The notes: generated by a model not told the origin, from the letters alone. A DNA stretch of 64,000 bases from Tubulanus polymorphus (GCF_964204645.1 NC_134027.1:10572485-10636484); one strand, 5' to 3'. Positions 796 through 61,812 are shown, counted from the first letter of the stretch. A program made the numbers and translations.

Positions 796-1070
796 ATAGG
801 GATTGACCCTGTTATGTATTTGATAAGTAGATTTTGTTTGTTTTTTTATCTAGTGTCCTTTACAAACCCATCATACCTGCCGGGGCGAAACAGAGGGGGT
901 TGTGTTACATTTTGAAAACGGAAATCGAAGTACAGATATAGTTGGGGGGTGTGATGGTTAGTTAGCCTGATCATGATTTTAAAAGAAGTAATGTACAGGG
1001 TAGATAGGCGGCCGGGCGGGTCAAGCTCAGCAGAAAGGAGAAACAAGGTATCAATTTCTTTTAGCCTTAT
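796..1070 (+). repeat. Interspersed repeat; partial copies at 45187-45335 (+) and about 47410-47552 (-)
   Basis: Shared ATAGGGATTGACCCTG...GTAGATTTTGT...GTGTCC...AAGTACAGATATAGTTG. Confidence 0.75.
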
Positions 1071-1701
1071 TCGCGTACAACTAACTCTTTTGGAAGGGTA
1101 AATGCCTCGAGAGCTGAGGAAACTGCGCAGGAAGGAATGCTACCCAAAATTGATGCGCCGGTTTAAACCAATTTATCACATGTCGTCGTCCGGTTTAGGT
1201 TTATGTCTCGTACTTTCCCTGCCGCACACATACAATACAAACAATAAAAACATAGATTCACCAAACAAATACCTATATTCATATACTATCAACAATACAC
1301 AGTTCGTACTCAATGATATAACAATATGCATATGTTTATACTTAATTTTAAATATTTACAGATTTTTGAAAGCGTTCGCATGAAGATTTTTTTCTCATTC
1401 GTTCACGAGCAGCGCATTCAACGTTGTAACGAGTCGCGACACCGTTGATCCGAAGACGATACCTCAGAACTCGGAGCGTTGAAATACAGCGCTGCTGCCG
1501 CCGTCATTCACATCAGGAATGTAATGACCGACAGGTCGGCTTCAGATATCTAACTCTCGCGAGTAACGTGTCATCGTTACTCGAAAAGGAATAATAAATA
1601 CTCTACGGGTACATTTCATTTCACAATTATTACCGCCGACGACTAGCGAGTGATCAGCGCAACGGTCGTAGCGATCGTTGAACTAAGCTACGGCTATATA
1701 C

Positions 1702-1958
1702 CAGGGCTGTACATAGCAGGGGGCAATAACCCCTCTCCCTGAAATTTTGAAAAATATTTTTGTTAATATCATTGTTATCCATTAGGAATTCAATGTAGAA
1801 TCCTTTACTTGGGACCGACAAACATTTCGTTACAGGCCTACAGTTTTGTTATGGCACGAATGAAGAATCGTTACACCAATTTTTGATTTCAGGTAACTGC
1901 CTCTTTTCAGGGTTCTCCACCCCGCCCCCGCGAAATTCAAATGCTAGGTACAGCCCTG
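1702..1958. mobile_element. MITE with CAGGG termini and 5-bp TSD
   Basis: TIR CAGGGCTGTACATAGCA / TGCTAGGTACAGCCCTG, flanked by TATAC on both sides. Confidence 0.8.
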
Positions 1959-2067
1959 TATACTAGGGCATTTTCAACCTGGGTTCAATTCATGAACAAC
2001 TTTTAATCACTGCCAAAATAAATACGATTTCTTCTTTAATTCTGTTGAGAATTCATCGATCGTTCAT

Positions 2068-2231
2068 CCCTTTTCAGTGCTGACTATTTCATACCCTCTG
2101 CAGGACATACTGCCGTATTGTGTCTGCTCCGCATTGAAGCGTATCATTCCATCGATTTCGATTGGTCTCTATGGAGATTCCGAAATTCGCTACTGGCTCT
2201 TTCGAGTATCAATTCATCAGCACCGAAAGGG
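2068..2231. mobile_element. piggyBac-like MITE copy (degenerate)
   Basis: CCCTTTTCAGTGCTGA ... TCAGCACCGAAAGGG; same family as 3679-3962. Confidence 0.6.
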
Positions 2232-2381
2232 TTTTAATTTGCTGCATTGATTATCGCCTGTTTAAACAGTACGTATCAAAATAAGTTTCGTACAATTGTC
2301 ATGTGTTCGTCGAAAAAATATTCAGACCAGATCTTAAATTTGATAATATTGCTACGATCGCCTAACCGCATTTTTTGTCTG

Positions 2382-2488
2382 GGGCCAGTTGCTCAAAAGT
2401 TGGTTACCAAGGATTGTTGACATGGTGAGACTGGAACTATGGAAATTATCCACTGGTTATCTTTCACCAACATTTGAGCAACTGGCCC
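2382..2488. mobile_element. Short Harbinger-like MITE; related copy at about 32224-32336
   Basis: TIR GGGCCAGTTGCTCAAAAGTTGGT / ACCAACATTTGAGCAACTGGCCC, flanked by CTG on both sides. Confidence 0.75.
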
Positions 2489-3413
2489 CTGCCTGCTACA
2501 GGCATACTTAAAATCTAAATATCCATTGTTATATACACTCAGATACGGATCAACTTAAACACGTAGAGGAATACGACGATAAACATTATTTCATTTCGCT
2601 TCGATTAATGATGATGGTATGGCGGCATATATGCGTAACAGTGAAATAAATAAATATCAAACATTTCGGCTTCACAATCATCATAATTCTATCATTAAAA
2701 ACATCATTGTCGATTAGTAACATTCATCAACGCAAAACGGTGATCTTATATAAAAAGTCGAGCGGAAAGAACGCTATTCTCAAACCGGAAATGAACAGCA
2801 GTTACGGAAAGGAAAAAGTTCATTTGGAAACAAACCTTCCATGATGCGTGTTCAGGAATCCACCAGTAGCCACCCAATGAGGTCTATTTACCATCGTTTG
2901 CATGTTTTTTTTACAGCTATTGGATCCATGCACGATCGCATAAGATTCACGCTTATTTCTTACCATCTACCAACAACTCAGTCCAATGAATATTATTCGC
3001 ACCGAGTCAAAACCTCTAGTTTCGCTTAAAATATGGCTGAATCACAACGATGTTAAATCTTGGACTGTATTGGCTGGACTGTACTATTTATCGTTAGCAA
3101 TTTTTTCTTTTATAAACACAACTGCTGTTCAATTCGATTTTCAAAATATCCGACTAATGCAAATATAACGCGTATATAGTGCGACAAACTCGGGTGCGTA
3201 TACAACGAATCGCATGCATTTAACCTGTATAAAAACAAACACTTATAAAACGAGAAATAAAACGATGATATTGATTCGAGACTTTTCCTCAGTAGTACCT
3301 TAAAATACCGGTATTCTCTTTCGCGCGCAAAAAAAAAACTTCAGTGACCGCTCGATCGTTTAAAACCGTAAAGGAACGGATCACTGGTTCATATCTAAAC
3401 ACGACGACCTACA

Positions 3414-3516
3414 TTAAAAATTGAAATCGGCTTCAGCCATGTCGATGGCCCAGGCGAATTTGTCCCGTTGAGTTTTGTTGTAGATTTTCTCAATCGGCAC
3501 ATCCCACTTTTTGCAC
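3414..3516 (-). CDS. TOP1: TOP1 last coding exon
   Basis: [33 protein letters not shown]. Confidence 0.96.
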
Positions 3517-6500
3517 CTGTAAATACATACCGGATTTGTTATCAGATCATGAGATTTATCATTACGTCATAGTGATGTAAAAGCATAAAAGGCATTAAAA
3601 TTACTCACTCTACCATATACTACCATATGCATATACTAGAATCATATGCCAATTTAATTTGTTTTCTTATGCTTTTAACCCTTGCAGTGCTGGCTAATTA
3701 ATACCCTATAGTGCTGAAGATAATTTGAAAATTCTGAAAAATTCCACCCTCGTGAGTTGAATAACGGGAATACCACTATAGTGCGTCTACACCCTGATGC
3801 GGTATATCGTTAGTTACTAATATTTCACTATGTTTGACAGGTGCTGCCATCTTTCAATAGAGATAATTAGTAGTAATTAAATCAATACACCGCAGTGCGC
3901 TGTACTACCAAAATCTTTCACTGATTCATACACCGCACTGCGGTGTAGACGCACTGAAAGGGTTAAGGGGAACTGCACAGTGCTTACGGTAACTAAAATT
4001 CATAATTCATGCATACTCGTGTTGCTGTTCAACATAACGCTGGTTAAAATTTCCATTTTTCTCCTCATCAACTCATACACAACAATTCTTATACAGCTAC
4101 GAGTAAAATTTACCATAGATGGGAGCCGCCATATTGCAAACTTCAAAGCAGCAGCTTCGCGCAAACAGTGATGAGCTGCGCGCCGAGACAAATAAACACA
4201 CTAAACATCCCAGCTGGGCTGCCAGTGTGGTCCCCGCTTTTATCGTCCTCCCTCTGTGAGAAGAATATGCAAATACTTGACAACGCTACCCAAAAAAATA
4301 ATTTCACTGCAGCAGGTCCCCTTTGAATGACTCATTCTCCGAAGCCTCAGTCAGATCTTCAGATCAAAACATTTTGGACAAAATTTTCACTCACCATCCA
4401 ACGGATATTCTAGGATCGAGATAGTTCAATTTGGACGTGCCCAACGCAATCTCTTTATTCTCGTCTTTGTCCGTAGCTTGTACCTCCAGTTTAGTCAGCT
4501 GTTCTTCCAATCTTTCCAGTTGCTTCTTCTTTCGTTCATAATTTCTAATGAGGATTGCGAAAAAGAATGATCTTAAGCCTAAGAATTTATAGATTTTTCG
4601 TGTACCCAGGTGTATCAAAAAATGTTGACCTCAATTTTTCAGGATTGTATCTCGGAACACATTTTTAAAACGACAAGGAATCGGAAGGACATCATCAATG
4701 TGTTAGTCGATTCAGCCATTTCCTTGATAGATGGCCTAAGAAAGTGGCTTCATGTTTTCATTTTGAAGACCATGGAACTGTTTTATCTTCTTAAACAACT
4801 TATCAAAGACCCTTAGTTCTTAAAACATGGTTAAAACATGGTTAAAACATAACAGGTGCTTAGGACAATGACTACGATGGACTTGATGTCTATTTGAGCT
4901 TTTTATGCATTATCGATCTTACGTTTTATTCTTGTCTGTTTTTGATGCTTTGTATTCGGATTTCGCTACTTTTAGATTTTTCTTTGCTTCTTTGATCGCG
5001 TCGTTCTTAGCATCGATCTACACACACAAACAAGATTTATACGCATGAAATTACCTCGACACACAACGGCTGATCTGCCGAGTAAAACAATACACGACTC
5101 GTACTCACTTTATCCTGTAAATTTTGCATTTGCTTGTCAAAATTTTTCGGGGCGGCACGTTGATGGTTACAGAGAATTGCGACAGCGCGGTTGGCTCGAT
5201 TGTAAGATAACAGTTTAGCCGGTATCGTGTCTTCCTCTGAAAGAAGTAAGTTTTTCAATATACAGTTACGACACAAAATATTGCAAGTATCACATGTGAA
5301 GGTTTGAACCCATGATCTGGCAATGCGATCAAATTGCCTAACTGCTCGCCTTTTCTGCAAATAATCTTTGATCTATAATGGGTGGTCTTCAGAATGGATA
5401 TGGTAAATACATTTTCACATTTATCTGAATTAGTGTAAAAACTATTATTTGCATACACATAGGCCTGCAGTGGTGATAGAAAGCGATAATGTCAAGCTAT
5501 TGTATCTCATATTTTACCTTGTGTAAGGAGATCGAGTTGTTCTTGTAATGTTTTGGAGGCATTGAACGTTCGGAACACTTTCGCCGACAACCCTTCCATC
5601 AACGTGTTCAGATGCTTATTGAGAATACCAGTCTGAAAATGTGTGCGTAAAAAATGACGTGAATAACTACTAGGAGGCAATGATGTCTACGAAGGTTGAA
5701 AACGAAATATCAGTCGTAGAAAATACTAATCACTTATTTAGAATACGCAGTACACAAGGAACAAAGTTACCATGAAATTCTCATAGTCAACCTCCAAAAC
5801 AAGGCTACATATTAAACTAGATGGCCCCGTCCGCTGGCTTCTAGTTTGGCTCAATCCTTATCAGATTCATGCATGAAAACAAGCAATAATTTTGCAGACA
5901 TCTGAGCCTTTCTTGTAACTTTTACAACTTTCCAATACATATTAGTTTGACTAAAAAATAGCTTGACGAACAGATGACCTATCAACACACTGTCTGTTGT
6001 GAATTTGAGCCACTTATTTGGATCAATCCATACCAGTTACATGCGTGAAAACAAAAACATGGCTTCACGCAATCATTTTGAAAGACGATGGACCCTTTTT
6101 TGTAACCTATTAACAACTTTCCAAGATATTAATTTGACCAAAACATAGCTAAATACACCACCTCCGATGATAATATAATCCTAAAGATGATGGCATTAGT
6201 CAATAGTATGAAGTCCATCGAAATCAACTTACATTAAGCCGATCGAACAAATCGTCGCCCGGCGCTTTTCCATTCATGAACAGCTCCAGATTTTTATAAA
6301 CGCGTTTCTCGACGGGAACACTGTTCGTGTAGCGTATCGAATCTTTACCGAGGAAATCGAACTCCACGACGCTTTCCTTGCCGTTTTTCTCCGGATACAA
6401 CGTCAGATGTTCGACGCGCAGCGAACAACAGCCGACCGTGTCTGCCGACTCGCCTTCGTCTTTCTCGTTACCGGCTCTCAACGCTAACTACACGAAACAC

Positions 6501-9500
6501 AAACAGAAAACACTTTGTCATCGACTGTGATATACGGATACATCACATTCAAGACCTATCAATCCGTGGAGGGAGCTTGAAAGGCATTTCGAAAACATTA
6601 ACATTAATAAGCTTATAATCAAACTCGTTTTAGTTTTCTATGTTCTCTTTTTACGTATGATGTTAAGCCAATGAGCATATTTTATATGGATCTTCGCCTG
6701 AATTAATCATTATTATTATCATTATTAACTCTTTCAGTGAGATGTATTAATCGTTAAATGGCTAGTGCACCGCAATGTTTTCAGTGAACGGTTTTTATCA
6801 CTATCGAAAAATGGCAGTAACTGTCAAACATGGTGAAATACTAGCAACTTAAGATACACCGTGCCGCAGTGTAGACGCATTATTGAATGCAATGGGATGG
6901 AATTTTTGGAAATTTTCGAGTTACCTCTCGCATTTAAAGGTCATTTAGTCAGCACTGAAAGGGTTTAGCTGGTTACAGGCACTATTCCTGGAAGGGGTTA
7001 AGGGCCACGAAGAATATTGCTTTACCAGGCGCGGATCAAATGAGGTGATTTGGTTGCTAGAGCAGCCCATTAAGAAAATTTCCTTTGTATTATTTTTCAT
7101 TTTTTAGTTTTTCCACATTAAATTTCAAAGTACACGGATGATACATTCTTAGGCGATCGAGCAACGTTTATAAATGCTCAGAAGGCATGAAAAGAGATAA
7201 TTTATCAAAAAAATTTTTCGAGGATGACCGGCAGAGAACCCCCGCCCCCTTTGAAAATCGCGGATCCACACCTATTCACACCACAAGCAGCAGAACTACA
7301 TTGCATAGATCTTATTTATAATGCGAAAGTACAGTCATAATATAAGCATTGGAAGGACGTTATACTACTTTCTACCCTACCTTATCGATGAAATATAAAG
7401 CTACGGCTCGCTGGCGAATTCTCATTTCCTTCGATTTCCAATCCTCGCGATATTGAGCGCGTATACGATCGACGTGCTTGTGAAGTTTTCGCGCCGTTTC
7501 GTATTTCTGCCAATCTTTCTCGCCTTTCAACTTCGAACTCGCGTTCAACATGACGTACTTCGTTTGACCTTGAATGTTTTCATTCCAACACGCTAGCCAC
7601 GTGACCTGTCGAGAAATTTTCAAAGAGAAAACAATCTAAAGTCTTCGTCGAGGCATCAGATTCGATCAGAGGTAATGAAATCGTGCAGATCTAGACCGGC
7701 GCCCGCCTCAGACATTTGAAATTTCATCGCTATTCTTCCAATATTCGATCGTACAGGCTTCAATGTTCAGAACCTTGCCGAGCAATGCTTGAGACACTTT
7801 AATTCACAAAAGAAAAAGAAAGTCTACAATTTAGAATGTCTGAAGGGGTGAGGTTCTAGACAGAAAAGGGTGCAAGTAAAATCAAGCCTGTTATTCATGC
7901 AGAAACCATTTAGAAGGTTAAAACCCAATATATACAGATTAGAAAGTTTCGAAAATCAAAATGACACAACGTTTTGAACCTACGACTAGGAGATTATCAT
8001 CAAGTGGGTGATGATCTCTAGTGTGGTGAAATGTTGCATCATTTCAATCTTTTATTTGAATATATTCTTGATTTTAAAACTTTCAAATCTGTGCATAGTG
8101 GTTTTTTTAAATCTTATTATCTGTTCTACAAGTTCGAGTGTGGTTATTCTACTAGAAATTGAATAGAATCTGTAAATGAAATTGAAGCTCACCGCATTAT
8201 CATGTCGGACCTCTTTCCACCGATGACCTTTCGGGGGATCAGGTACTTTGGCGTCCCTATAACACACAATGGTAAAACGATAATTCATCTTCTAACTTAA
8301 TCCTTGATTAAAGGATTATCTAATAATTGCAATAATGAATCCTATATAACATATAAATAATTGCTGCTGTTGATATCATTATCCTTAACCTATCTCTAAA
8401 TGTCAATGGGAAGATCTAATTATTATTTCAAAATAGCTATTTTAAAAGGTCAGCAGTATTCATCAAAAAGATTAAGAGATAGTCAGTGTATTACAGTATC
8501 TGATAATATGGCGCGGACACGTTTTACTCACTTGCTACAATTGATTATTACATCTTCGGGTTGGACTCGTCTTTTCAGCATGCCCTGTTTCGGGTGGTCG
8601 CCACGTCCTCTGAACAATCCCGGAGGTTCGATTCGGAAGTTACCGATTTTTTCCGTATGACCGTCCATTTTACAGAAGCCGTATTTTTTCACCATGGCAG
8701 CGTTTTCCTCTTTCAATGCCTATACATATTCGAAACAAAGCTTCCGTCATGAATATTTCTCAGCTGATGCTAAACACTAGGTGTAACACCTAGTACTACC
8801 CTTTGATATCTCATCAAATGCTGTCATTTGTTTGACATTCTCTATTGGATAGATGCATAATTAGAAGCCAAAGCACAGCTTAGAAGGTACATGCCAACAA
8901 AAGTATACATTCTGTGATTTCTTTAGTAATCAATGACCCGAGATAATCACCTGCGATCTGACTGATCGAAATAAGTATTTCTAATTAGCCCTAAATTATT
9001 AATTTATTCATGCTTCACTTTGTTTACGTAGTTCACACACGACCCACAGTTGTATGTGAACCACACATTTAGTGCACCTCCTAACATCAAAAACAAAGTG
9101 AGCACGTGCTGAAATCGTCGAAAGTTGTATTTTTCTGTAATGGCTAAAATAGAATTCGAACCAGTAACATATCTAATATTTGTGAATACCGGTATATCAT
9201 AGTTGAAAATAACTTTTACACGATATTCTATTTATATAGCATATGCCCTTCAAGGCGATGCAAACATCTGAACCGACGAAGCTGCAACGTTCTTATTACA
9301 CAACTGATTTTAACCACCTATCTCTATGAGGTAGGCCTAGCCTTTACAAACTGACCAAATTATGAATTACAGAACATATCTTTCGTTTCAGTTTAAATAT
9401 AGCCGAATCACATCAGACGCCTCAGTCAGGTTCTGAACCTGACTGAATTTTAGGAATTTTAGGGCCGTTTGTATGCCTGGGTTCATCTTCGACCAAAATG

Positions 9501-12500
9501 TTGATCAACTTACGAGTTTTTGCTCTTTCGACTTGTTCTTCCTCTGCTCGGAGAGTTTTTTGAAGTGATCGTTGATTTCGTTGAAGTTGCACTTTTTCAA
9601 GTCAGTGATTATCTGTTTTTCTTCCTCAGTCATAACCTACAGATATTCAGAGATATCAATCGCTATTCCACGAAAGGATTCAACAAATTCTACCAGCCGC
9701 TCTACGCTTAAGCTTACACTCTATTTGCACTACTGGACATGCTACAAAAAGACATGTTTCCGGACCCGACTACTTTGGTATCTACTGTTATAGTAATTTT
9801 CACAATTTGACATCTAAAAATAATACTTAATTGAAAATGAACTAGGAATTATACTGATTTTGAGAGTATTTTGATAATTTTGATAGTAATTGATCTCACT
9901 CTCACAGGGCTGCCAACCTCTGGAAAAGTGCTATCAGTAACAAATTGAATTTTTTCAGTAACATTTCATTGAAATATGAAAGAAAATGTTCAAATCAATC
10001 AGTAATCAACAGTAAGATCCTCAGTAACATCTTTCATATTTCTGTATGCCGATCGAACGAATCAAATCAGCATTTCTCGTCACAAAATACTATATTAACA
10101 AATACTGAAAATCAGCAACAGTTGTCATCTTTGCTCAAAAATAGCGGTGGTAGTCAGGTCTGCATTACGATTAATTATACCTTTCTCCAATCTTTCATGA
10201 AGTTCTTATTGAATACATCTTTAGTCGTGTAATCGTGGTCGATCATCCGGCCGTAGAAAGTGGCCACTTCTTCGGTTTCCGGTTGCAGCCTCATCTTCTT
10301 CCCTAGAATTTGAAAGTGTGACCTTGCATGCACTATGAGCATTAGCCTCGGAGTACAAAACTTAAATAACACATAGCATATCGAGTTGCAAAAATATAAT
10401 TCGACAGAGAATCGAATGGGTCGATTAATTTAAGTAATCTTTATATATAAATGAGTGTTCAACCAGAATTTGAGGACTTTTCGAGGAGTACTCAAGAACG
10501 AAACATCAAAACTTGATGAAGTTTAAAAAGCGTATGGGTACTTAGTAACTGGAAGCAATAGTCACAGACCAAAATACACTGACTTATGAAAATGTCTTAA
10601 AAGTTCTACAACAATTTAGGTCAAATTCCATGTAGTATGAACCCTGTCAATTAATATGGACCCAATTCCACAGCGAGAATTGACTCCACAAAGTTTCTAA
10701 CTAGTAGGCCATTGAGTTAGGTAATTCAATGGTTGATTCAGATTCAACCAAGAGGACTGATAGAACATACAGTGTAACTCTTTTTCTATCGCGCAGTTTT
10801 AGTATGACAGGGTTTCGTACCATTGTAGAAGAAATGAACGTCTTTCGGTAACGGTTCGTAAAGCGGCGCAAATACCGGTCCCTGGTGTTCGAGAAACTTC
10901 CATTTCGTGCCATCATTCTTTTTACTACGATCTTCTTCCCACCTGATTTCGGAAGAAAAGAAAAAGTAAAATCCAATTTTTCAACTAATCTACTTACGAA
11001 AGATTCAATAGCAAATATAGCCATTACACTTTTACGAAAAAGAAGCCTAAGCGAATGCAACAAAGGAACTACAAAAATAATTTTACCATTTCCATTTTTC
11101 TGGTTCCTCTTCTTTCGCTTTTTTCTTGCCCCCTTTCGCCGGTGTCTCTTCGGTGTCAGTCTTTGCCCGTTTCTAAACAAATCGGAAAATGGCTAACTAA
11201 TGACCGTTAAATTGCAAAAAATGCCATGAATTTGAAAAGTGAAATTACCCTCGGCTTTTCGTCTTGTATACCGGAATCAGATTTTCGTTTTTTCGCGTCC
11301 TTTGATGATGACTTTGGTTTTTTAGCCCTATCAAAACATAACATATCAAATAAGCCACACATTAGAAATATAACAGAACATAATAAAACAGAAATGAGCA
11401 TCTTTATGAATAGCATTTTAGATTGATGTTTAATAAGCCCACCTACTACGAGGGGCTAATCAGCAACATTAGATCAGACGCAAACCACTCACTCGATACT
11501 AAACAATGCTCAAACGAATTAAATAAGTCATTTCCGCAAGCATTAGCAATTCACTACACACAATAATTTGACCTGCGCTAAAATTAGGGTCAGGCAAAAT
11601 TTGGCACCCATGTGAACAGTTATGCCGGGCCAAAAACGTTCGTGTGATGGCGACTATAAATGGACTTTGTCTTCAATGACTCTCGACGGAACAACAGGTT
11701 GTACCATTTTTGAACGACAGATGCTATATGCCGTGATATAAATCTAAAAGTTAGACATACCGAGCACTTAACGGCATATCATCATCCGAGGCTTCTTCGT
11801 ATTTCGGTCTCTTCCTCGGCTCTGATTTGGCGAGGCGTTGCCCCTACAAAAGAACATCCACAATTTAAAACAGACAGCTCAAAAGTATAAAATCTGAAAA
11901 AAATCTTCGAAATAACTTCAGCTTATGGGTATATGAAAATGACGTTCAAACTCAATAAATTTTTACAAAGTGGCAGATTGAGTCTTTAACTAGAGGTTCA
12001 TTTGAAAAAGAGGAATGTAGTCCAAAATTGAGCTAAATATTGCAGACAATAAGCAGTATTGCACCAATTAAGGAATAAACTATAAATCTCCATTGATAGC
12101 AGCAAAAGACTCAGGGGTCCCACATGACCACAATTTTCAAATTTGAGGGGCCTTTGAGGATATGACCATATCGAAATGCGAGGGTCTCTCAAGATCAATT
12201 TCAAGAGTAACTTTTTCAAGGCTGCTGGTTAAATTAAAAGGTGGATATACGTAGGATGTAGGTCGTTTGAAAATGTAGGTACAATTTTTTGGGGGGGAAA
12301 ATCTAGGGTAAAATGGGCCTTTCTAGCCTTTTTCGGGCGTAAGCGTTTTCTAATCGTCGACCTAACAAGATAATTACCAGAGGCAAATCGTCTTCGCTAT
12401 CGTTGTCGTCGGCTTCGCGTTTGATCGGCGTCATTTTGACGGGCGACACCGACTCGCGTTTGACGACAGGTTTCTCTCTCTTCACGACGAAATCGCCGTC

Positions 12501-13022
12501 GGCGACGACGCGGCCACCGCCGACGTTGTTCTCGGAGATTGTCTCGCTGATCACCGTCGTCGGCTCCTTCTTCACCTTCACCGCGCCGCTGGAATGTTCC
12601 GACCTATCGCGATGCTTGTCCTTATCACTCTTATGCTTATCACCTGAACTGCTACTCGACTTGGAATGCGAATCTTTCGAACGGTTTTCCGATTTTGACG
12701 ATGAGGACGAATGCTTCGACTTGTCGCCGCTGCCGGAACTTTTTGAACTCGACGAATGCTCTTTCGATTTTGACGAAGAAGAAGGACTTCGTTGTTTGTC
12801 TTTCGACGACGACGACGACTTGTGCTTACTACTCGAACTGCCGCCACTGTGCTGTTTGTTACCGCCGCTGCTGCTGCTGCTGTTGTGTTTGTGGCTACTG
12901 CTACTGCCGCTTTTGTGATGAGATCCGTCTTTACGGGATTTTCCGTCCCCGCTGCTGTTACCGTTGACTAATTGGTGATTGTCGTCGACGTGGTTCGTCA
13001 AGATTTTCGTTTCGCCCTCCAT
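3414..13022 (-). CDS. TOP1: DNA topoisomerase I (type IB), complete spliced CDS of the nuclear form, 16 coding exons, 860 aa
   Basis: Exons join in phase through GT-AG introns: 13022-12378, 11843-11761, 11327-11249, 11172-11087, 10942-10821, 10302-10181, 9636-9514, 8719-8532, 8256-8193, 7605-7381, 6487-6233, 5632-5518, 5236-5109, 5017-4923, 4544-4395, 3516-3414 (sum 2583 nt). Hallmark motifs: [56 protein letters not shown], catalytic SKLNYLDPR. Confidence 0.97.
3679..3962. mobile_element. piggyBac-like MITE in last TOP1 intron
   Basis: TTAA|CCCTTGCAGTGC ... GCACTGAAAGGG|TTAA. Confidence 0.85.
4395..4544 (-). CDS. TOP1: TOP1 exon with catalytic Tyr
   Basis: [50 protein letters not shown]. 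Confidence 0.97.
4923..5017 (-). CDS. TOP1: TOP1 linker exon
   Basis: [31 protein letters not shown]; phase 0 to 2. Confidence 0.92.
5109..5236 (-). CDS. TOP1: TOP1 exon with catalytic His
   Basis: [42 protein letters not shown]. Confidence 0.96.
5518..5632 (-). CDS. TOP1: TOP1 catalytic core exon
   Basis: [38 protein letters not shown]. Confidence 0.95.
5845..6150. repeat. Diverged tandem duplication (about 170-bp period) in a TOP1 intron
   Basis: CATGCRTGAAAACAA...TTGTAAC...ACAACTTTCCAA...TTTGAC..AAA.ATAGCT occurs twice. Confidence 0.65.
6233..6487 (-). CDS. TOP1: TOP1 catalytic core exon
   Basis: [10 protein letters not shown]...[12 protein letters not shown]...[11 protein letters not shown]...DLFDRLN. 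Confidence 0.97.
6729..6963. mobile_element. piggyBac-like MITE copy, opposite orientation
   Basis: TTAA|CTCTTTCAGTG ... CAGCACTGAAAGGG; shares internal GTGTAGACGCA with the 3679 copy. Confidence 0.7.
7026..7274. mobile_element. CAGG(G/C)GCGGATC-type MITE; relatives at about 36266-36556 and 39879-40144
   Basis: Imperfect TIR CAGGCGCGGATC / GATCCACACCT; shared GGATCC ends and G/C runs. Confidence 0.6.
7381..7605 (-). CDS. TOP1: TOP1 core exon
   Basis: [21 protein letters not shown]...[12 protein letters not shown]. Confidence 0.97.
8193..8256 (-). CDS. TOP1: TOP1 core exon
   Basis: [21 protein letters not shown]; phase 2 to 0. Confidence 0.95.
8532..8719 (-). CDS. TOP1: TOP1 core exon
   Basis: ALKEEN...[51 protein letters not shown]. 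Confidence 0.97.
9514..9636 (-). CDS. TOP1: TOP1 core exon
   Basis: [41 protein letters not shown]. Confidence 0.95.
9906..10132. mobile_element. hAT-like MITE family; copies at 33446-33644 and 42878-43076 in opposite orientation
   Basis: Termini CAGRGCTGCCAAC / GTTGGCAGCCCTG; clear internal similarity among three copies (e.g. CCTGATTTTCAG, GATCTCACTGTTGATT). Confidence 0.8.
10181..10302 (-). CDS. TOP1: TOP1 core exon
   Basis: [41 protein letters not shown]. Confidence 0.95.
10821..10942 (-). CDS. TOP1: TOP1 exon, start of core domain
   Basis: [40 protein letters not shown]. Confidence 0.95.
11087..11172 (-). CDS. TOP1: TOP1 exon ending in KWKW
   Basis: [29 protein letters not shown]; phase 0 to 2. 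Confidence 0.92.
11249..11327 (-). CDS. TOP1: TOP1 exon, basic NLS-like region
   Basis: [26 protein letters not shown]; phase 2 to 0. Confidence 0.85.
11761..11843 (-). CDS. TOP1: TOP1 exon, N-terminal charged region
   Basis: [28 protein letters not shown]; tag| ... |gtatgt; phase 0 to 2. Confidence 0.85.
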
Positions 13023-13036
13023 ACTTTCGACTAGAA
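12378..13036 (-). CDS. TOP1: TOP1 exon with nuclear-form ATG (13022); Ser/Lys/His-rich low-complexity N-terminus
   Basis: Acceptor ttcttatcag|[20 protein letters not shown]...SEDDLPL, donor CTG|GTAATT, phase 0. Confidence 0.9.
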
Positions 13037-13069
13037 CTGATAAGAAAAAGAAATACGCGTTTAGTTTAA

Positions 13070-13436
13070 CAGGGTCCTTACTACAGATCAGTCACATCTG
13101 GATATAAGGATTTTCAAGGGGTTTTTAGGGAAAAAATTTCAAATTTCTTCACTTTCAAATCCCAAAATTTAGGCCCACTGTTGATTCCTCCTAAATTGGT
13201 AACCGTTAACTTCCTCCTAAATCGGTACTCTTAATCTCGGTAAACCATAAATTTTGTAAGGCAATTATAACATTACCTTTTACAACTACAAACTATCTAC
13301 AAAAATTTCTAATTGCCCATTTCTCAAAATTGAAGGAGTTTTTAAGGATTTTTTTGGCAAGGAGTTTGAAGCACCTTAACAAGTATTTTCCATGTAAAAG
13401 GAGTTTGTAAGGAATCAAGGAGTCATAGGAACCCTG
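13070..13436. mobile_element. CAGGGT-ended MITE in TOP1 5' intron
   Basis: CAGGGTCCTTA ... TAGGAACCCTG with subterminal AAGGA repeats; related fragment near 22141. Confidence 0.6.
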
Positions 13437-14329
13437 TTAAAATTTGACGTTAATTTTCCATAAGCAAGAATTCCAGGGGTAAGGTTGCATAATAAAGCTT
13501 TGATTTAGGCCTATAAGACCAATTCCAAGACTATTTTAACTAACCTATCATATAATCAGTCCTCAAATTTAAGACCACTTTCGGACATAGTTAAAGCAAG
13601 TGTAAATTAGGGAAAGGGGATGATTGTATAAAATGATAGTGACAAATTTGGAAGAATCTAGCTGTCATGCTTTATGATGGATTAGGCCCTAATCATTATT
13701 CCAAACCTGGATGGAGAAATGAAGAAATAAATTCTTAATCATTCTTTTAATCATTTTTATCAAAAATCTTATGATTTCCTAAAGAAAAATGAATGCGACC
13801 ACTTTTTATTATCGTAATCTAGACAACAAAACAAATATTTTTCTATGGCGTCACTAATTCCAAAAATTGTTGTCATGTGTCAATTTTAACAGTTTCACGA
13901 TGAACAAAATATAAAAATTTTAAATTTTCTTTGATCAAAAGTTAGGCAATTAATTTTGAAAAGAATGCACAGACCTCCTCGCTGATAAACAAACATGCCA
14001 AATACAAATTTTTGGGAGGGATATGAAAATAATGTATTTAGCCCGCACAAAACAAATGGGCATCATAAAAACATATTTTTGCGCTCAATTTTACAGAAAG
14101 TGCATTTCAAAAGGCCGATCGATGAATTGTTTTTGAATGTAAAATTGAAAAAAATTTAAAAATCAGAGTGAAAATAAACTTTTAAATTATCCTCAGTTCA
14201 TGCATCTGAATGAAATTTTAGAAGGACAAAGGATTTAGATAGAGCTTGAATTGAAGGCTACGCGAGATTTATGCATTATTATCCATTAAACCGAGAGATT
14301 ATAATTATTCATAGTGAAACAGCTGATTT

Positions 14330-14930
14330 GACCCGACGACTATAAACCCGCGCGCCATCATCGCCATGTCTGCCGTGCTGGCGACTTAGTTTTTTCGCGG
14401 CCAGCAGCTAACACCAATTTCCATCCACCAACCCTTCGAAGCCGAATCGAATTCATTTTTCACCCTTTAAACGTTATACCTCGTCCCGGCCCTCGATTCA
14501 TCGACGAAAACGACCATTTCACGAGCTAAGATTCCCTCCTCCCAGACAAAAATGCTCGCGTTGCGTCGACTTAGAAATTTTCAGCCATTTTCCGTCGCCA
14601 TTACATTTTACAAGCGAAATTTTACACGAAAAGAAGTCGCTATTAATCAGTTATCGGTATACGAATCGTAGCGAAACCTTCGTTAAATGCAGAATGCACA
14701 TTATCGGACTCACCTGTAGAAAATAATCGCGATTGGATAACGTGGAAGCGTGGAAAAATGATTAGAACGGTGACTGCTGGTCGGTAATTTCCACGCGAGG
14801 AGTTTCGCCGAAAAAGACAAAGTGCGGAATTGGCGACGATACGCATGCGTCAGATTCCCGGATGTAAACATAACCACGTGCGCGACTGGGGTCCGCGCCA
14901 CGTATTTACTAGAGCGTTGTAAGTCTTTTT
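14330..14930. promoter_or_regulatory. CpG-rich bidirectional promoter region shared by TOP1 (-) and the RhoGEF gene (+)
   Basis: Local CpG/GC enrichment. Outward-facing splice donors (minus strand at 14713 and 14479; plus strand GTAAGT at 14919). NRF1-like palindrome ACGCATGCGT (14841-14850), ETS-like CCGGATGT, E-box CACGTG, YY1-like AAAATGGC/ATGGCG on the minus strand near 14585-14602. Confidence 0.6.
14714..14846 (-). CDS. TOP1: Candidate upstream TOP1 coding exon encoding a mitochondrial-presequence-like leader
   Basis: ATG at 14846, 44 codons + 1 nt (MRIVANSALCLFRRNSSRGNYRPAVTVLIIFPRFHVIQSRLFST), consensus donor CAG|GTGAGT, phase 1; joins acceptor 13036 in frame (V-L-V-E-S-M). Confidence 0.6.
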
Positions 14931-16442
14931 TCGTCTATAAATAAACGTACATTCCTTTTTTAAAGCGGTCGAAAATCTAAATGGCACTGTTAAGCTGCGT
15001 TTAAATGTAATTTTCGGCGATGACACTGTCCGTAAGAAGACGTAGCCTAAGTCAATGCAAAATGTTTGAATGATTTTTGTCGTGTATAGTCTGGGTGGAA
15101 ATCTTTAATCATTGCTAACATCGTTTTAGAGTTGTAGGAATTTTTTGACACTCATATTTTAGATTGCTGTTTGCGGGAACCTAAAATTACTACTAATCCC
15201 GATATTATTAGTGATGCCCGACTACTCCTCGGACTTGGTATTAATCAGAATATTCTCTTTCAATAATTTCAATCGTTGTGGACTTGGTCTGGAGGTGCTG
15301 ACACCTTTTATTCAATTGCTGAATTACCGTACGCTTGTGAGAGTGTGTCCCTGCAACATGAGTTCGACTATAATGAAATTAAAACATGATATAAATGTAT
15401 TAAGTTAGAATATGAAATGAAGAATAGATTGATACTGTATGATAAATTACATCGATTGGTTGATAAAGTAACAACATGGCCCATTTAGGCGTAGCAATGG
15501 ATCGGTGTTTTGTACTTAAGTATTAAATAGGCATCATATGGCAATCTACTCCTCAGCTAACATTTTGCTGTATGCATGAGAAAGCTCGGGCCTCCCTAGA
15601 ATATTCTGATTAATTTGATTAATCAAAAGGTGCAATCTAGACCATTTCTGAATGCTTTTGAGAAATCAAGTTTTTCTAGATTATGTTTTTTTTAATGATT
15701 TATATATTATATAATACAATATTAAGAATCAAGATACATGTGGAATTCCCCATTTAGCGGAAAATTTGCTCTTTTTTCAGCCAGGCAAGCAAAATGCGAG
15801 TGAATCTCATACTATTGGAGTTCTTACTAATAATGTCACGTACATCTGTCCTACACAGATATTAATGACACGATTCCGCGAAGAAGGAACTGTATGACGA
15901 CATGTATCTCCATATCTATCTGTAATAGTAACCTCGATTTGCATTTTATGTCAGTTCCAGGTTGACACTCGGAATACGCTCATGGGTTTCTTTAACTAGC
16001 GGCCTAACGGACATAACGGAGATTTTTTTGTGAGTAGATGATAAAACTTTTTCCAATTATTTATGAACTCCTTTCATAAGGCAAACCTTACTGGCCAGAT
16101 TTTTTGATAAGGGTCAATTCAATGGAAATTACTGTTTTTATTAAATTGTCCAAAATATGTTGATTAAAGTGATACACAAGAATATATCTAGAGTAAAGAA
16201 TACTTATTGCTAGATTATTTAACAAATACCCTTAATTAGAATTTGCTGCTTTGATATGTTCATTGTTACGCTTGATAAAGGCAAAAAATCAATTTGTGGT
16301 TGTTGATGCTATCTTGAACTGAAACATTCCTTTAAAAACAGCTGATAGAAGTATACCTGGATAGCAGAATTTGCCTATCTAGAATCAACAAGACTTTTTA
16401 TTTAAACCAAATGTTTGTCGCGATAAGGCAACATTATAGCTA

Positions 16443-19582: not shown

Positions 19583-20975
19583 TGTTTTTGTGGTAATCTA
19601 GCCCAAATATTTATGCACCCGATTTACAAGGCCAGGGATTGCGGGAATATGTACATCGTAAATAGCGGTAATGTAGGCCCACGCAGATATTACATTGAGC
19701 CATGCTGTTAGCTCTTGCGACTGACAACTATCGGATAGGCCCCATCTCATTGACGCTATCTAACTGCGAAGACAAATATTCAATAAATGGATGCTATTTA
19801 TCATCCTTTATTGGCCGCGTGCAGAAATTTCAGCTATTTGTCTGTAGTGGAGTAATGACCTCTACGTTTTGTTTCGTCAGACAAGAGTCTGCGATTTTAG
19901 ACGTTGTGCATTCGTGCGATGATCAGCTATGTAGAATAATTTATGGAGATTTGAAAAAAAATTTGTTATTTCTGTATGTCATCGATTTACAAGTTTGTGA
20001 CAGGATAAAGTGCTTCTACGAAGAATATGAAAAGTTTCCAGTGAGAAATGAAGAATGTTATTTCTAGTTTAGTTACCTGCCCAATAATACACACAGTATA
20101 TTTCAACTCTTGGTCAATTTCCAAGATCCGCATTTAAGCATATTGCATTAAGATATGCTATGTTTACTTCTATACTTGTATGCATATTATATCTACATGT
20201 TTAGTTCGACGGAAATTTAACGTAAGCCTAAATGTTTTCATTCGCTTTCATAGTTTATGATATTAGCGATGTTGCCAAAAATTTTGATTATTACTCCTCG
20301 AGCGTTCTTAACAATGTTGTGAGTGTATTGACACGGCTCTCTCTTGATGAAATACCGGTATTCCCTCGCGCTGGGGGTAGATAGACATATATATGTACTC
20401 GAGCTTGTTCATCAGATTGTCTTCTTCGGCGACGACGGCGACAGCGTGTGGCTGAGTGAATTGCTGCATTCGGCATGTACCGGTGATGCTGGTAATAATT
20501 CAGCGTGCTGGGTGCATTCTCCGTCAACACCAGCGCAGCGACATAGCTGCAACGAGATCGTCGGCACCTTCGACGCATGAACTCATTACGATGTCGCGAA
20601 AACGAACGGTTCTTACCGGTTGATGAGATTGTGTTTATTTGTGCGTCGATGGGTTAAATCGAGCTCGCGTTGGACAATATTTTGCTATTCCGCGGTGTTT
20701 TTTCGGGATTTTCAATTCATAATTATTCGCGTAGTGTAGGTGTGTGCGCGCGTATCGGATTATTCTATACCATCTGGCTGATATTCGGGCGAGCGCGTTT
20801 GTCATAATACGCGATCGCGACGTCTGCGCGACTTCTGAGAAATTATGATACCCGACAAAATTTATCATCACGTTGATGTGATTTAAACTTTATCTTAGAT
20901 ACTATGTTCGAAGCGCTTTTCTCGGCTCCAAATTACTGAAAACCGTTGTTAGTTTTCGTATTTTGAATCCGTGCG

Positions 20976-21113
20976 ATGGGTAAAATTCAGTCAAGACATA
21001 AAGTGGCCGCCGAGGCTATCGATATTCTCGCTAGTCGATGTACAAGTCTGGAGCATATTCGCTCGGATTCGTTCGAATTTTTGGACGTAGATGTTGCCAC
21101 TCCTTCTTATGAT
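20976..21113 (+). CDS. Candidate RhoGEF first coding exon B (N-myristoylation motif MGKIQS)
   Basis: 46 codons MGKIQSRHKVAAEAIDILASRCTSLEHIRSDSFEFLDVDVATPSYD, donor GAT|GTAAGT, phase 0; preceded by CpG-rich 20.3-20.9 kb. Confidence 0.6.
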
Positions 21114-23340
21114 GTAAGTAGTAGGTGCTAGTCCACCATTATTATCTGCTGTATTATGTGCACTGTCACCTGTCGCTCTTTCACCTTTCACCTGATGGAG
21201 TAATTGATCAGGGAAAATTCAAATTCTATCTTGATTAACCAGTTACTGTAATTATCATCTAATAGGGTGTCTCGACATTGTCATTAGAAAAATTCTCAGA
21301 TATGGAAACCATGTTTCTGTGAATGCATCTTTCTATTATACTTCGAGTTATTCTTGGAGGAATTATGACGTTTTAATTGTTGCCGCATATGGATTTTAGA
21401 CGCTATTATGATCAATAAAAATATGCGCGCTTATTTTGCTGAATCACCACACCGATTGCTCGAACCTGTAAACTGGCTCCCCTGTGTGGCAGACGTCGCC
21501 GGTTACTAGTCTCTGAAGGATTGTTGTATGGATTTTGCTGTTGTCTTGAAGAAAAAGAAGCGAAAGACCTTAGATGTGAAATCTAATAATTCAATATGTA
21601 CCGTGCTGTAGTTGCAACCAATGATTCCTCTGAGGGCAAATCTTTTCCACGGTTCGTGTATCCCTTTTAGGGTTATTATGTTTTACTGGCCAGGATTTGT
21701 GAAATATTTCGCAGTATTGACAGTTTCTTATGCTAGCCGAGTAATCTAACCTAGAAACAACTGTCTTGATAGTTATTCCGATATGCTCGTATAGACATGC
21801 ATATAGCTTTTAAGGTATATATGTACTGATGGTCGACTGAATCATGTATTGATGTGATGTGATTATGCCGTGTGTTCAAGTGGTAGGCTATACGACAAGT
21901 CGTTGCCGCGCGGGTTCATAAACCCTTAAATTACTAATCCACTCCGCTACAGGGGAGGGAATTACAGTGCACACAATCTCTACCTTTATTGATCGCTATA
22001 CCGGCTCAGAATCTTCTAAGAAACTCGTGACATATATGTATCGACTTGGCAATGGAGAAGTTGAGTCGGTGCAACTGAGAACCTGGCATGCCAGCTGCTG
22101 TGTCGCTAGATGGAGGCTGCCAAAATGTCGGGCATAAATGCAGGGTTCATAGCAGTCCTCAGAAGTCCTTGAAAATCCTTGGATGGGTCAATTCAAGGCA
22201 TTGAATATCATGGATGGGCTCGAAAATCCTTTAATCATCCTCATGGTCCTTGAATGGCGTCATCGCCTCACAATGACATCTATGCTGTGCAGTACATCAG
22301 ATCCTGGTATTGTTAGGTTGAGTCTGTAGAGACAAACTACTATATGCAGTGGAAATGCATTTCCAGTTTAACATTTAGATGAAATGCTGGGTCTATGATG
22401 AAATTCAGTCTTCATATCACGGATCGGACTTTATTGGACAAACTAAAGCTGAAGATATGCTCAATTCTTAGTTTGACTGTTCAAGACTTTTTCAATTATC
22501 TATGGATGGACCAAGTGAAAATTGGATAACGTTCATATCTATGGATACAATAAGAAATATGATCAATTTGACTGACATCTATAAAGAGCAGATATCTGAA
22601 ACAACAACATATTCTATCATTCAAAATAAGTTCATATTCAATAAGCTTATAATAATATTCAAATGGGGTGTGATCAGAAGACAGTTCACAATGGCAGTAT
22701 AGATTTTCTATGCTGTTTTCTTTTAAACTCTACCCTAACCTGAACCCTTTAGACAAGGCCATAAGCGTTGAAATTTTGTGATTACAAACAGTTGAAAAGT
22801 GTCTATCAGAATAGACGGTGGTGCGGACTATTTAGGACGGAGCTTCTGTCAAAATCGGCTTTTCGTTTTTCTATTTCCAACTGCTATGTATCCATTGGGC
22901 TCCGCATACCTTCATGACGTCGTTGAAAGGTGACCCTGTAATGAACCGCTGCTTATTGCCGGTGGTGACTAAGATTTATCGGAACGAATGAGGAGTCTCG
23001 ATTTCTTTTTGCAATATCCAATGTACTGTAATGATGCTTTACTAAATCGCTTGTAACTGGAGCTGTGTATTTTCCAGCTCGCGAAGATCTGTACCCTTTT
23101 TCAATTGAGTATTTCATTTTCTTCGTGAAATGCATAGTCTTTATATATTTAGAAGGAATAGCGCGCGTCATGTCTGAAATTTCGAGGCGAATCGATAATT
23201 GAATCTCGGCGTACAGTAGAAAACAAGGCGAAGACGTTCGGCGATACATCAAAAGAAACCGTTCCTTACGCTCAACAAATGAAATGATTTATCCAGCTAC
23301 CCACTCGTAATCTAAGAATAGCTGCGTCGAGTAATGAAAA

Positions 23341-27599: not shown

Positions 27600-28273
27600 T
27601 TGAAATGAAGCGCTGGAAGCTATTAGATGATCTAAATACCTGGGATTGGGAGTGTTGGTTGAACGTTACAGCAATTTTTCCGAGTGACTTTCCTGTTGTT
27701 TACTCTGTGACTCGATCTTATTTGCATCTCGGTTGAATTCGCGATCGAGATGATGCTCGCGTTGGCAATGATTCTTAGCAAATGTTGATTCGACAAATTA
27801 GGCATTTATACGAAAAGTTGAATTTAACTAAATCTAAAATCAAACACTCTTGGGATCTGTTCAAATTTGTTCATGTTCGTCAAAAACAGCTTTGGAATCT
27901 TTTTAAGTATTGGTTGATTTTTTTAGATAGAATTTATATTTCGCGCATCCGGCCCGTGCCGAGGGGCAGTTCTATTTCAAGAAAAGGGGCTTTTTCACCG
28001 TGAAAAGGGACACTTTCCTATTAACAATAGATAGATCTTAAATGTGATTCCCGCCAAATAGTAAATCTGAGTGCCTGAATAAATCATTTGAGAATGGATT
28101 ACTTTTTACTATACAAAAAAGACAGTAACTGGGAAAATGGTATCCAAATTTTGAAAAAACCATGACCCGAATTTTTTTACACTTTTTTGACTTTTTGAAA
28201 GGCACTTTGATGAAAATTTTAGGGCCTCAGCACGGTCCTGCTAATTGTAAATAACTCTTTTATCTCTTTGCAG

Positions 28274-54866
<26,593 letters not shown>

Positions 54867-58986: not shown

Positions 58987-61812
58987 CATGGCAGAGCCTT
59001 GATGCCATCAGGTTTGAATCGCAGCTAACAGCGGTTGATATCCTAGTTATCTCGGCGCCGCGATAGGTCAAAATCAAGTATTTATAGTTTTGCCCAGATT
59101 TCAGGCGTGTTGTCCCTGAGGTTTATGCGATGAAAATTGAACTTTCCAAAATCAATATGCTTATCAACATTGTATTGAGGGAAGTGAAGTGCATGTCATT
59201 GTTCAGGAATTTCACATGACACAATTCAATTTGCAGTCAGATATCTCTCTTCTATGTAAAAAGAATTCATGATACTTAGCTAACTTTTTGGAAATGATGG
59301 AATGTAAATACGTAACTTCATTTCGGAACCTAAAAAAGTTTTATTTATAGGACTAGAATATAATAACCCGTTGTTTGCCTAAGTAGTATCTATAGGCAGC
59401 CAGGGACGTAAAATGCGAAGTTGCTTTGTCAGAATTTTTGAATTTTGAACGATAGATACTGATATGCATGGAGATTGCATTGTAAGTATATTCTCCCTGG
59501 AATGCAGCGCTCACATATCTCAAAATATATTCGCATAGATTTCTAAACACAGGGAGAAATGCAAAATACGTGCATACTAGAAGAATATATCGATATTCGT
59601 CATTGTTTAGAAACCGAGGAATTTTTCGTTCCAAGAATGTGAGCATTTCGACCTTTGTTGAGAATTTGTTTTACGGCTTTAACGATATCACGAAAAGAAA
59701 TTGCTTAATAGTAATAGACAGAAAGCTGATCTTCACAATATATAATCAGGATTGAACTGCGTTCTGAACTGCGTGACCATTCATTATTACCAGCATGTAT
59801 TTATTTTGAGTCTCATGTATTTGAGACACGACCAGTAATAGGAAAATGTTGTGTGACAAGATGTGTATTTTTATGAATTTTTATGGTTTGCGATTTATGT
59901 ATATAACCATAAATACATAAAGATACCTGTTTATGTATTTTTTATATGACTGGTAGACTGGGGATTCTTTTTAGTAGCGACTCAGACACACGTAAGCCAA
60001 CGTATGGGAAATACTCTAGGCTTGAATTGTTTGTTAGAAAATGCATGTTTTTCGCATTGCCAAAGCATTCTTCAATGAATAGAACAGCACGGTATTTTTA
60101 ATGTAATAGATGTGCCACAGGTGGCAGGTTCCCTTTGGTCCTGGTTGGATTATTTACTAGATTTGATACCCTCAATTATAACGATAGAAAGGCCGCTTTT
60201 GCTTTTTGCGCTAGCGCCATGTATGTTTTATTTGATATGCGATTATCAATTTGCGTTTATGCATTTTTGGCGGGATTACGACCAAGAAGGATTTATGAAT
60301 GTGGTCGACTTTGGCTATCGGGCCGAAAGAAAATTTATTGATTTAATTTCAATCATTAAGAGAAATGAATCAAAAATCAGAATTATTTAGGAATAATTTC
60401 TTTTCAGATACAATCTCATAATGTTTTCAACCTGAATTTTCGAAGCTGCAGCTACACAATAATGACAAAACTTTTCTGAAAAAAGCCTTTTCGCTATCAA
60501 TGAAAATGTATGCGTCGAACAATGTCTCTTTATTACTTCAGCTGTAGGCTACTAAAAGGGTCTCCTGATAGAAATTAAGTTGCTATACTTTATTGACCGG
60601 TGGGCAACTGGATCCAGGTGTCAACTGTCCAAAAAATAATTACCCAGTGATGATTCTTTTAAAAAAACTTATTGAAAAGCGATAAAAGTGCCCGCTACAT
60701 GAAAACTACATTGAAAATCACAACAAAACAAATCCGGTGAGGACAATCAGGACCCAGTTCCAAAGTTCTTTCGTTGAGTTTGACCCTTAGAGTTCATTTC
60801 CACTATTTTGACGTTTGAGTCGAATAGTTGTCAAGAACTGTGGGGATCCAGTTGTTAAGGATCATCAAACGATTTACCCTAGTTTAATGCCTGATTTCTG
60901 GACTTGGGAGGTCAAACCATGTTAATCCATTACTGATTTCTTTCTAAGTACCTATGTAAACCAGCGTTACGTTTACAAGCCTACCTCTTCACTGTAACCG
61001 TCTAAGCAGTTTTCCAACATTTCTCGATTATGGCAAAAAGGTTTCTTGACGAAAGACATCTCGCCGGAGATGCCGGTGCTAGAACGGCTTATTATTAAAG
61101 GAATGGTGGTTAAAGGGTTAACGTTCCAGCGTGGCTACCTCCACATCACTGCCGACGAGAGTTTTGTGTCTGATGAATGACTCAAGCTAGTTCGTTCTAT
61201 TCCGATTTGATTGGCTGTTCTCTGTCGGGAACTCTCTGACCTAGAATACCGGAATTCTCAACATGTGTTGTAGTCGAGTCTAATCTGTTGTACGTATATT
61301 GTGTTGTTATGTGTATCAGCCACGGTGGTGGTGCGTATCGCGTGTTCCAGTGTGGTTTGAAGAGTGGATTTTCGAAGGATTTTATGCAATTTTTGTGATT
61401 AAACAAGATACGTAAGTATGTCGGGTGTATGTGTATAAACACCAGATTTTCAACCGTTGTTGTATGCGTTACATGTGCTACTAAACATCCATTGTCTGTT
61501 GAGCTAGTCTAAGCAACATGTTTTCATTTGCATATACATGGCCTAACTGCCAACATGTACCGGTGATCATCTGAATTCAAATAGGAGATTTCGCTTATCA
61601 AATTTCAAATCGCAAAATTATTCTTACGTGATTTGTTAGTTTCGTGCGTTACTTATTCACTGAGGCACTAAAAGGGATCGTCGGGTCATGTTATTTCTCA
61701 TGTTGAACTGGAGTACATTTCAAATTTCATTAGCTAGTTGATGGCTAAGGTTTTCTGATATTCTATGAAATTCGTGTCATGAAATGTCACAGTTTACATT
61801 CTAAATTTAGTT

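Follow-up and report, generated by a model that had tools for sequence, protein, structure and literature searches.

The minus strand of a 64,000 nt stretch of the Tubulanus polymorphus genome (GCF_964204645.1 NC_134027.1:10572485-10636484; hereafter the window, in which all coordinates are positions) carries a TOP1 gene whose main product, under each of the three explanations weighed here, is an 860-aa topoisomerase. An earlier interpretation, the sequence-only reading, had proposed that a hidden 5' exon lets this one locus also encode a 909-aa mitochondrial form. With roughly even confidence, we instead regard the first exon as untranslated, its presequence-like frames as products of chance and the main mRNA as making the ordinary 860-aa enzyme, a hidden mitochondrial form being a testable minority reading. 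The broader notion of a mitochondrial leader exon within a single invertebrate TOP1 locus does gain real comparative support from the short isoforms of insects, even though the 909-aa model itself is unsupported.

The TOP1 gene and its protein

A query with a core exon retrieved XP_074644312.1, a 100% identical 860-aa protein of T. polymorphus, which maps to the window as 16 GT-AG coding exons running from 13022 to 3414 on the minus strand at 100% identity. All three expected Pfam domains are present (Topoisom_I_N, E 3e-97; Topoisom_I, 2e-101; Topo_C_assoc, 2e-33), and the catalytic residues R583, K627, R685, H727 and Y818 have the spacing of human R488, K532, R590, H632 and Y723, as these are tabulated in PMC10081982. 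Residues 1-298 include 66 K+R, 47 D+E, 69 S and six K-[KR]-x-[KR] motifs, and by this composition form a long charged, Ser-rich N-terminal domain of the nuclear type, with motifs resembling nuclear localisation signals (NLS). In a phylogenetic tree, the protein pairs with that of Lineus (support 97/92) outside the vertebrate clade and is not a member of the vertebrate TOP1MT clade, hence not a separate mitochondrial paralogue; to judge from its sequence, the gene is a nemertean TOP1, encoding a type IB topoisomerase. TOP1 paralogues are, according to a passage of PMC10081982, restricted to vertebrates and originated at 1R.

The database cluster of XP_074644312.1 has one member, with neither a longer nor a shorter isoform, and the model lacks an upstream leader. 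The entry is labelled 'mitochondrial-like', which is uninformative as to location because many full-length, nuclear-type invertebrate TOP1 proteins bear the same label; the short, leader-bearing insect forms described below are entered simply as 'topoisomerase 1 isoform Xn'.

The assembled transcript

Three sequencing runs were compared with the window, among which X3, one run from one study, was recognised as RNA by its spliced contig. This contig, record 18 (5054 nt, depth 61.5), opens with 73 letters that precede 13036 and continues without a break as far as 1030; letters 74-733 align to 13036-12377, such that acceptor 13036 is used, while no use of the tandem acceptor 13030 was seen in this run. 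The exon chain 13036..1030 sums to 4981 nt, which with the 73 extra letters equals the length of the record.

The position of the first exon was estimated from length and depth. Observed depth is 4.22 in the bin 14176-14742 (3.15 predicted for 29 letters) and 5.64 in the bin 14743-15309 (4.77 predicted for 44 letters), and 0.5 and 0 in the bins flanking these two. For six bins that contain exons, prediction and observation agree within 0.11, and for a further six within about 1; bins with higher residuals overlap other contigs or repeats. Provided that the 73 letters are contiguous within 14176-15309, the donor should lie between 14705 and 14722 and the 5' end between 14777 and 14794, placing the end of the contig at least 52 nt below ATG 14846 and at least 77 nt below ATG 14871, a second upstream start codon. 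The letters probably represent 14786-14714, ending at the donor CAG|GTGAGT; the 5' end of the contig probably lies near the main start, with neither ATG used. The junction 14714->13036 predicted by the sequence-only reading is thus well supported by inference, its acceptor directly from RNA and its donor through arithmetic on length and depth. That reading's own caveat, that transcription might start below ATG 14846, is likewise hinted at by a contig, a kind of evidence that cannot fix a start site.

Two leader frames in the first exon

The DNA around ATG 14846 is as had been described. From this codon, inside a 10 bp palindrome (14850-14841) that we take to be NRF1-like, 133 nt (44 codons plus one base) remain open to the donor in phase 1; joining to either acceptor, 13036 or 13030, meets no stop before ATG 13022, the former reading V-L-V-E-S, and the sum 44 + 5 + 860 does give 909 aa. 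The 44-aa leader has seven Arg, no Asp or Glu and the ending S-R-L-F-S-T.

Overlooked, however, was ATG 14871, 25 nt upstream in another frame, which is the first ATG of the CpG island to reach the same donor and has the better context (G at -3, against a weak C at -3 for ATG 14846; the nuclear ATG 13022 has a strong context, with A at -3 and G at +4). A weak first ATG is a requirement for leaky scanning. The 14871 leader (5 R + 2 K, 0 D/E, net +7, hydrophobic moment 0.51) yields an overlapping out-of-frame open reading frame (ORF) when spliced to 13036. Its phase 2 exactly fits the core acceptor 10942, the join point of TOP1MT and of the insect short isoforms, where it would read Y-R|W-E-E; the resulting 615-aa model would comprise a 53-aa leader (8 R+K, 0 D/E, ending in R) and a 562-aa core, skipping exon 2 and three further N-terminal exons, 907 nt in all. 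Across 20000-10943 it is the sole phase-2 ATG frame of at least 15 aa at a donor scoring at least 2, and a relaxed scan of 17000-10943 found one further acid-free phase-2 candidate, at a weak donor (13975). The intron immediately before the core is 144 nt long, and a scan of it found no candidate leader exon, so a TOP1MT-like enzyme would here have to come from exon 1 by a four-exon skip; read-through of the same intron as a leader is ruled out by stops. The end of exon 1 (14727-14714) itself resembles an acceptor, a pyrimidine run with CAG, and the donor GTGAGT follows immediately. A third AG stands at 13025-13023, just ahead of ATG 13022; it would align the 14871 frame with full-length TOP1, and no use of it was seen in the RNA.

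Neither leader matched Pfam. Against 1.84 billion representatives the 44-aa leader had one match, which was spurious (it fell on a repeat inside an unrelated protein of 675 aa), and no upstream leader was found in the Lineus TOP1 model. Among 80 metagenome loci none is nemertean and none has a first exon usable for a test of the frames; locus L055 was rejected for this purpose since, with the core intron kept, its first exon lies outside the locus.

Leader composition and chance

As a chance model for both frames, the 184-298 nt preceding the donor were shuffled with their dinucleotide composition kept. In 15-27% of 20,000 shuffles, a frame opened by an ATG extended to the donor. Loose leaders (at least 30 aa, at most 2 D/E, net at least +4) occurred in 668-1682 of 30,000 shuffles in phase 1 and 572-1566 of 30,000 in phase 2, corresponding to 2-6% per phase and 4-11% in either, and strict phase-2 leaders in 31-118 of 30,000. 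A leader as extreme as that of the 14846 frame (at least 40 aa, 0 D/E, at least 7 R, a cut chosen post hoc) arose in 0.1-0.4% of shuffles. Half of the open shuffles had at most 1 D/E and a net charge of at least +4, and 5.9% had an R-x-F-S ending. When residues were shuffled within each leader, the hydrophobic moment of the 14846 leader was no higher than expected (p 0.46-0.59) and that of the 14871 leader not significantly so (p about 0.1). Two of the three frames across the exon 1 DNA are acid-free and Arg-rich; leader composition is thus largely a property of CpG-rich, GA-poor DNA, and the 14846 leader, unusual as it is, lies within the chance expectation of a genome-wide scan. Composition also cannot choose between the frames, because that from 14871 is as presequence-like as that from 14846.

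Short TOP1 isoforms in insects

For Drosophila species and Trichoplusia, the database has isoform models of 593-594 aa that carry a basic leader in place of the entire nuclear domain, joined to the core at x|W-E-E. A search restricted to proteins of 201-641 aa, in which the best 120 of 6927 matches were considered together with a further cluster listing, provided at least 26 named insect rows from five holometabolous orders, chosen by eye from named entries (P0283, P0304-P0313, P0327-P0400, P0438-P0468), with leaders of 36-81 aa and models of about 593-641 aa. The loose test was passed by 19 of the 26 insect leaders and by all six leaders of vertebrate TOP1MT, which join the core at this same point. 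In ten of the 26 insect leaders the last residue is not Arg, which plain intron read-through would not produce; such read-through is the likely origin of unnamed short proteins, many with the ending F-F-R, F-S-R or F-Y-R, and of several fish and bird models, all of which were excluded from the counts. Short and long isoforms have identical cores in 8 of 10 pairs, the other two differing, with cores unequal in length. At ant-like genomic loci (L029-L031, 3613-3749), the leader (3613-3737) occupies a phase-2 exon of its own, which has two donors and lies within the intron that precedes the core. It resembles the leader of an ant protein in the database: in one case 1 of 2000 shuffles was as good, and in another 26 of 2000.

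These isoforms are, on comparative grounds, quite probably real mitochondrial TOP1 enzymes and an unrecognised equivalent of TOP1MT. Evidence against a general pattern is that no short presequence-type isoform was seen in any of the 16 listed non-insect invertebrate clusters (one being that of Tubulanus TOP1 itself) or in a 12-member Schistocerca cluster. Termite-like loci (L047-L049) yielded no clear leader exon. The W|W-E-E intron is absent from 18 and present in 8 of 26 readable genomic loci (L023-L075), so some lineages cannot use this join; Tubulanus has kept it.

Extensions of the 14846 type are few. When 272 TOP1-family proteins were screened on their first 30 residues, only Pomacea and Danaus stood out (P0153, P0213, P0278 and P0279): a basic 31-aa extension with 3 D/E precedes the nuclear Met in Pomacea, and a basic 31-aa extension, starting M-R-I like the 14846 leader, does so in two Danaus species.

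Comparison with known systems

The 14871 model resembles vertebrate TOP1MT in its short, basic, acid-poor leader at x|W-E-E (593-611 aa against 615 aa for the whole protein), and its 53-aa leader is close to six vertebrate TOP1MT leaders (33-51 aa). TOP1MT is, however, a separate paralogue (clade support 100/100), whereas in Tubulanus the candidate short form would be an alternative product of a single gene. The likeness to the insect isoforms extends to gene structure, in that a phase-2 5' exon of one gene would be spliced onto the same core acceptor, and to the leader, which is basic and within the insect range (36-81 aa; median moment 0.38). Examples are Drosophila simulans X6 (593 aa), Trichoplusia ni X4 (594 aa) and Bombus terrestris X2 (596 aa), whose mitochondrial location is deduced from make-up. 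At the ant-like loci the leader exon has its own site in the pre-core intron, whereas in Tubulanus it would share exon 1. The 909-aa model follows the same principle as TOP3A of human and Drosophila, with two in-frame AUGs; TOP3A, though, is a type IA enzyme with both AUGs on one transcript (PMC9638942), and the assembled Tubulanus mRNA lacks the upstream ATG.

The leader-bearing TOP1 that recurs across species, in insects and TOP1MT, has a leader that replaces the nuclear domain and does not precede it. Within the TOP1MT clade, models P0435, P0424 and P0110 carry at this junction a long, charged N-terminus of the nuclear type, as though TOP1MT genes had retained both kinds of first exon. According to passages in PMC2790464 and PMC3091328, TOP1MT is regarded as a neolocalisation after the vertebrate duplication, its targeting signal being found in vertebrates; in Drosophila mitochondria, Top3alpha is the only topoisomerase seen, with 'no Top1mt', in the relevant parts of PMC4828762 and PMC6514783. 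PMC9653094 lists Top1 as a homologue, and the word 'isoform' is absent from its main text. In the literature searched, with most subscription papers outside its scope, neither a presequence exon of an invertebrate TOP1 gene nor the insect short isoforms are described.

Competing explanations for the first exon

The probabilities implied by the wording here are our own judgement, not computed, and leave a very small remainder for other explanations. In the account we favour, at about even confidence, a short first exon is joined to acceptor 13036 and 860-aa TOP1 is translated from ATG 13022. Transcription would begin below both upstream ATGs, 14871 and 14846, for which reason the first exon is likely to be untranslated, and its presequence-like frames would have arisen by chance in promoter DNA rich in CpG and poor in GA. 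Several points weigh against this account. Both frames pass the loose test together in only 4-52 of 30,000 shuffles, a rarity that argues against pure chance; by our own estimate a joint pass would be about 15-fold likelier if one frame were a selected presequence. Extra depth of 0.87 and 1.07 in the two exon 1 bins is unexplained by record 18, and repeat-rich bins could equally hide the 73 letters. Contigs, moreover, cannot reveal start sites and drop rare forms, the RNA comes from a single run of a single study, and that RNA may also underlie the 860-aa database model. Lastly, invertebrates are 'believed' to supply both organelles from one Top1 according to PMC2770673, and PMC6514783 likewise assumes that their single TOP1 serves mitochondria.

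A doubtful but not negligible alternative, put forward here on comparative sequence evidence, is that a minor transcript starting above 14871 is spliced 14714->10942, skipping the four nuclear exons, such that Tubulanus would make a short, 615-aa TOP1MT-like mitochondrial enzyme from ATG 14871. The codon is the first donor-reaching ATG of the island, in the better context and in exactly the phase that 10942 requires; it heads the only good-donor phase-2 frame in the 9 kb above the core acceptor; strict leaders in this phase are scarce by chance; and the retained W|WEE intron, the insect-like and TOP1MT-like composition of the leader and the shared cores of most insect pairs would all suit such a form. 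Yet the join is absent from the RNA (among the 15 of 383 joints listed), record 18 continues without interruption across both 14714 and 10942, and a short model is lacking from the database. Leftover depth near 14714 and 10942 was rejected as a sign of this junction, because leftovers of similar size (0.4-1.0) occur in four other bins too. The layout differs from that of the ant-like loci and needs a switch of start site coupled to a four-exon skip; short forms are wanting in the non-insect and Schistocerca clusters; the hydrophobic moment is not significant; and the frame was picked post hoc, after the insect pattern.

The original proposal seems the least likely of the three. On this view, some of the transcripts that splice to 13036 would be translated from ATG 14846 into a precursor of 909 aa, its leader of 44-49 aa being cleaved near R-L-F|S, and this improbable form would enter mitochondria with the entire nuclear domain, as a TOP3A-type dual start. 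The frame is open, acid-free and Arg-rich, with R-x-F-S just before the nuclear start; it employs the one acceptor used in RNA; comparable extensions are found in Pomacea and the two Danaus species; and a weak ATG suits leaky scanning. It fares poorly against the assembled mRNA, which starts below ATG 14846, against the single 860-aa protein in the database and in its weak start context. A start site would be required in the 20 nt gap below 14871, or else leaking past 14871; the moment of its leader is unremarkable, and similar extensions are few. Six NLS-like motifs would be carried along, and presequence-tagged full-length human TOP1 remained largely nuclear and depleted mtDNA in experiments described in a part of PMC2770673, a finding on a vertebrate enzyme that may not carry over.

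A more far-reaching reading, doubtful as regards Tubulanus, would make the TOP1MT design older than the vertebrate duplication: one bilaterian TOP1 gene would have produced a short mitochondrial enzyme by joining a presequence exon to the core acceptor in phase 2, as insects would still do and as Tubulanus would do from ATG 14871 by its four-exon skip. If so, TOP1 and TOP1MT would represent a split of two pre-existing isoforms, not the gain of a new targeting signal. The supply of type IB topoisomerase to invertebrate mitochondria is assumed in the literature, and a presequence exon spliced onto the core would be a concrete mechanism for it; the insect lead holds even if the Tubulanus frames are due to chance.

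Features of the locus

Table 1. Coordinates of the T. polymorphus TOP1 locus and its upstream frames within the window
Feature	Position	Strand	Remarks
CpG-rich promoter region	14250..15150		CpG observed/expected 1.8-1.9 over 14251-15150
CACGTG	14880		in CpG-rich region; presumably an E-box
Frame from ATG 14871	14714..14871	-	52 codons + 2 bases, phase 2; candidate TOP1MT-type leader if joined to 10942
Frame from ATG 14846	14714..14846	-	44 codons + 1 base, phase 1; weak context; palindrome 14850-14841
First exon of assembled mRNA, 73 nt, likely untranslated	14714..14786	-	placement inferred from length and depth; donor CAG|GTGAGT after 14714
Exon 2	12378..13036	-	acceptor 13036 used in RNA; tandem AG 13030; nuclear ATG 13022
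Nuclear N-terminal exons	11843-11761, 11327-11249, 11172-11087	-	rest of charged Ser-rich domain
First core exon	10821..10942	-	acceptor phase 2 (TG|G TGG, W|W-E-E)
Core, linker and C-terminal exons (12)	3414..10942	-	contain R583, K627, R685, H727, Y818
3' untranslated region, about 2.4 kb	1030..3413	-	RNA contig record 18 spans 1030-3513

Elsewhere in the window

High-copy repeats occupy parts of the introns and 3' region of the gene (568-1134, 2269-2835, 3403-3969, 9640-10206, 11341-11907 and 13042-13608), the bins containing them reaching summed contig depths of 2,000-142,000 in run X1, against about 40. Close to the 3' end of TOP1 at 1030, record 17 of X3 (depth 151) covers 1-768 and runs past the start of the window; it probably represents the 3' end of an expressed gene next to TOP1. 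A second CpG-rich island lies at 20250-21150, and ORFs are scattered along the plus strand at 28223-28714, 38253-38552, 50229-50471, 53429-53695 and 60079-60390, none of which matched Pfam; together, island and ORFs possibly belong to a large divergent gene.

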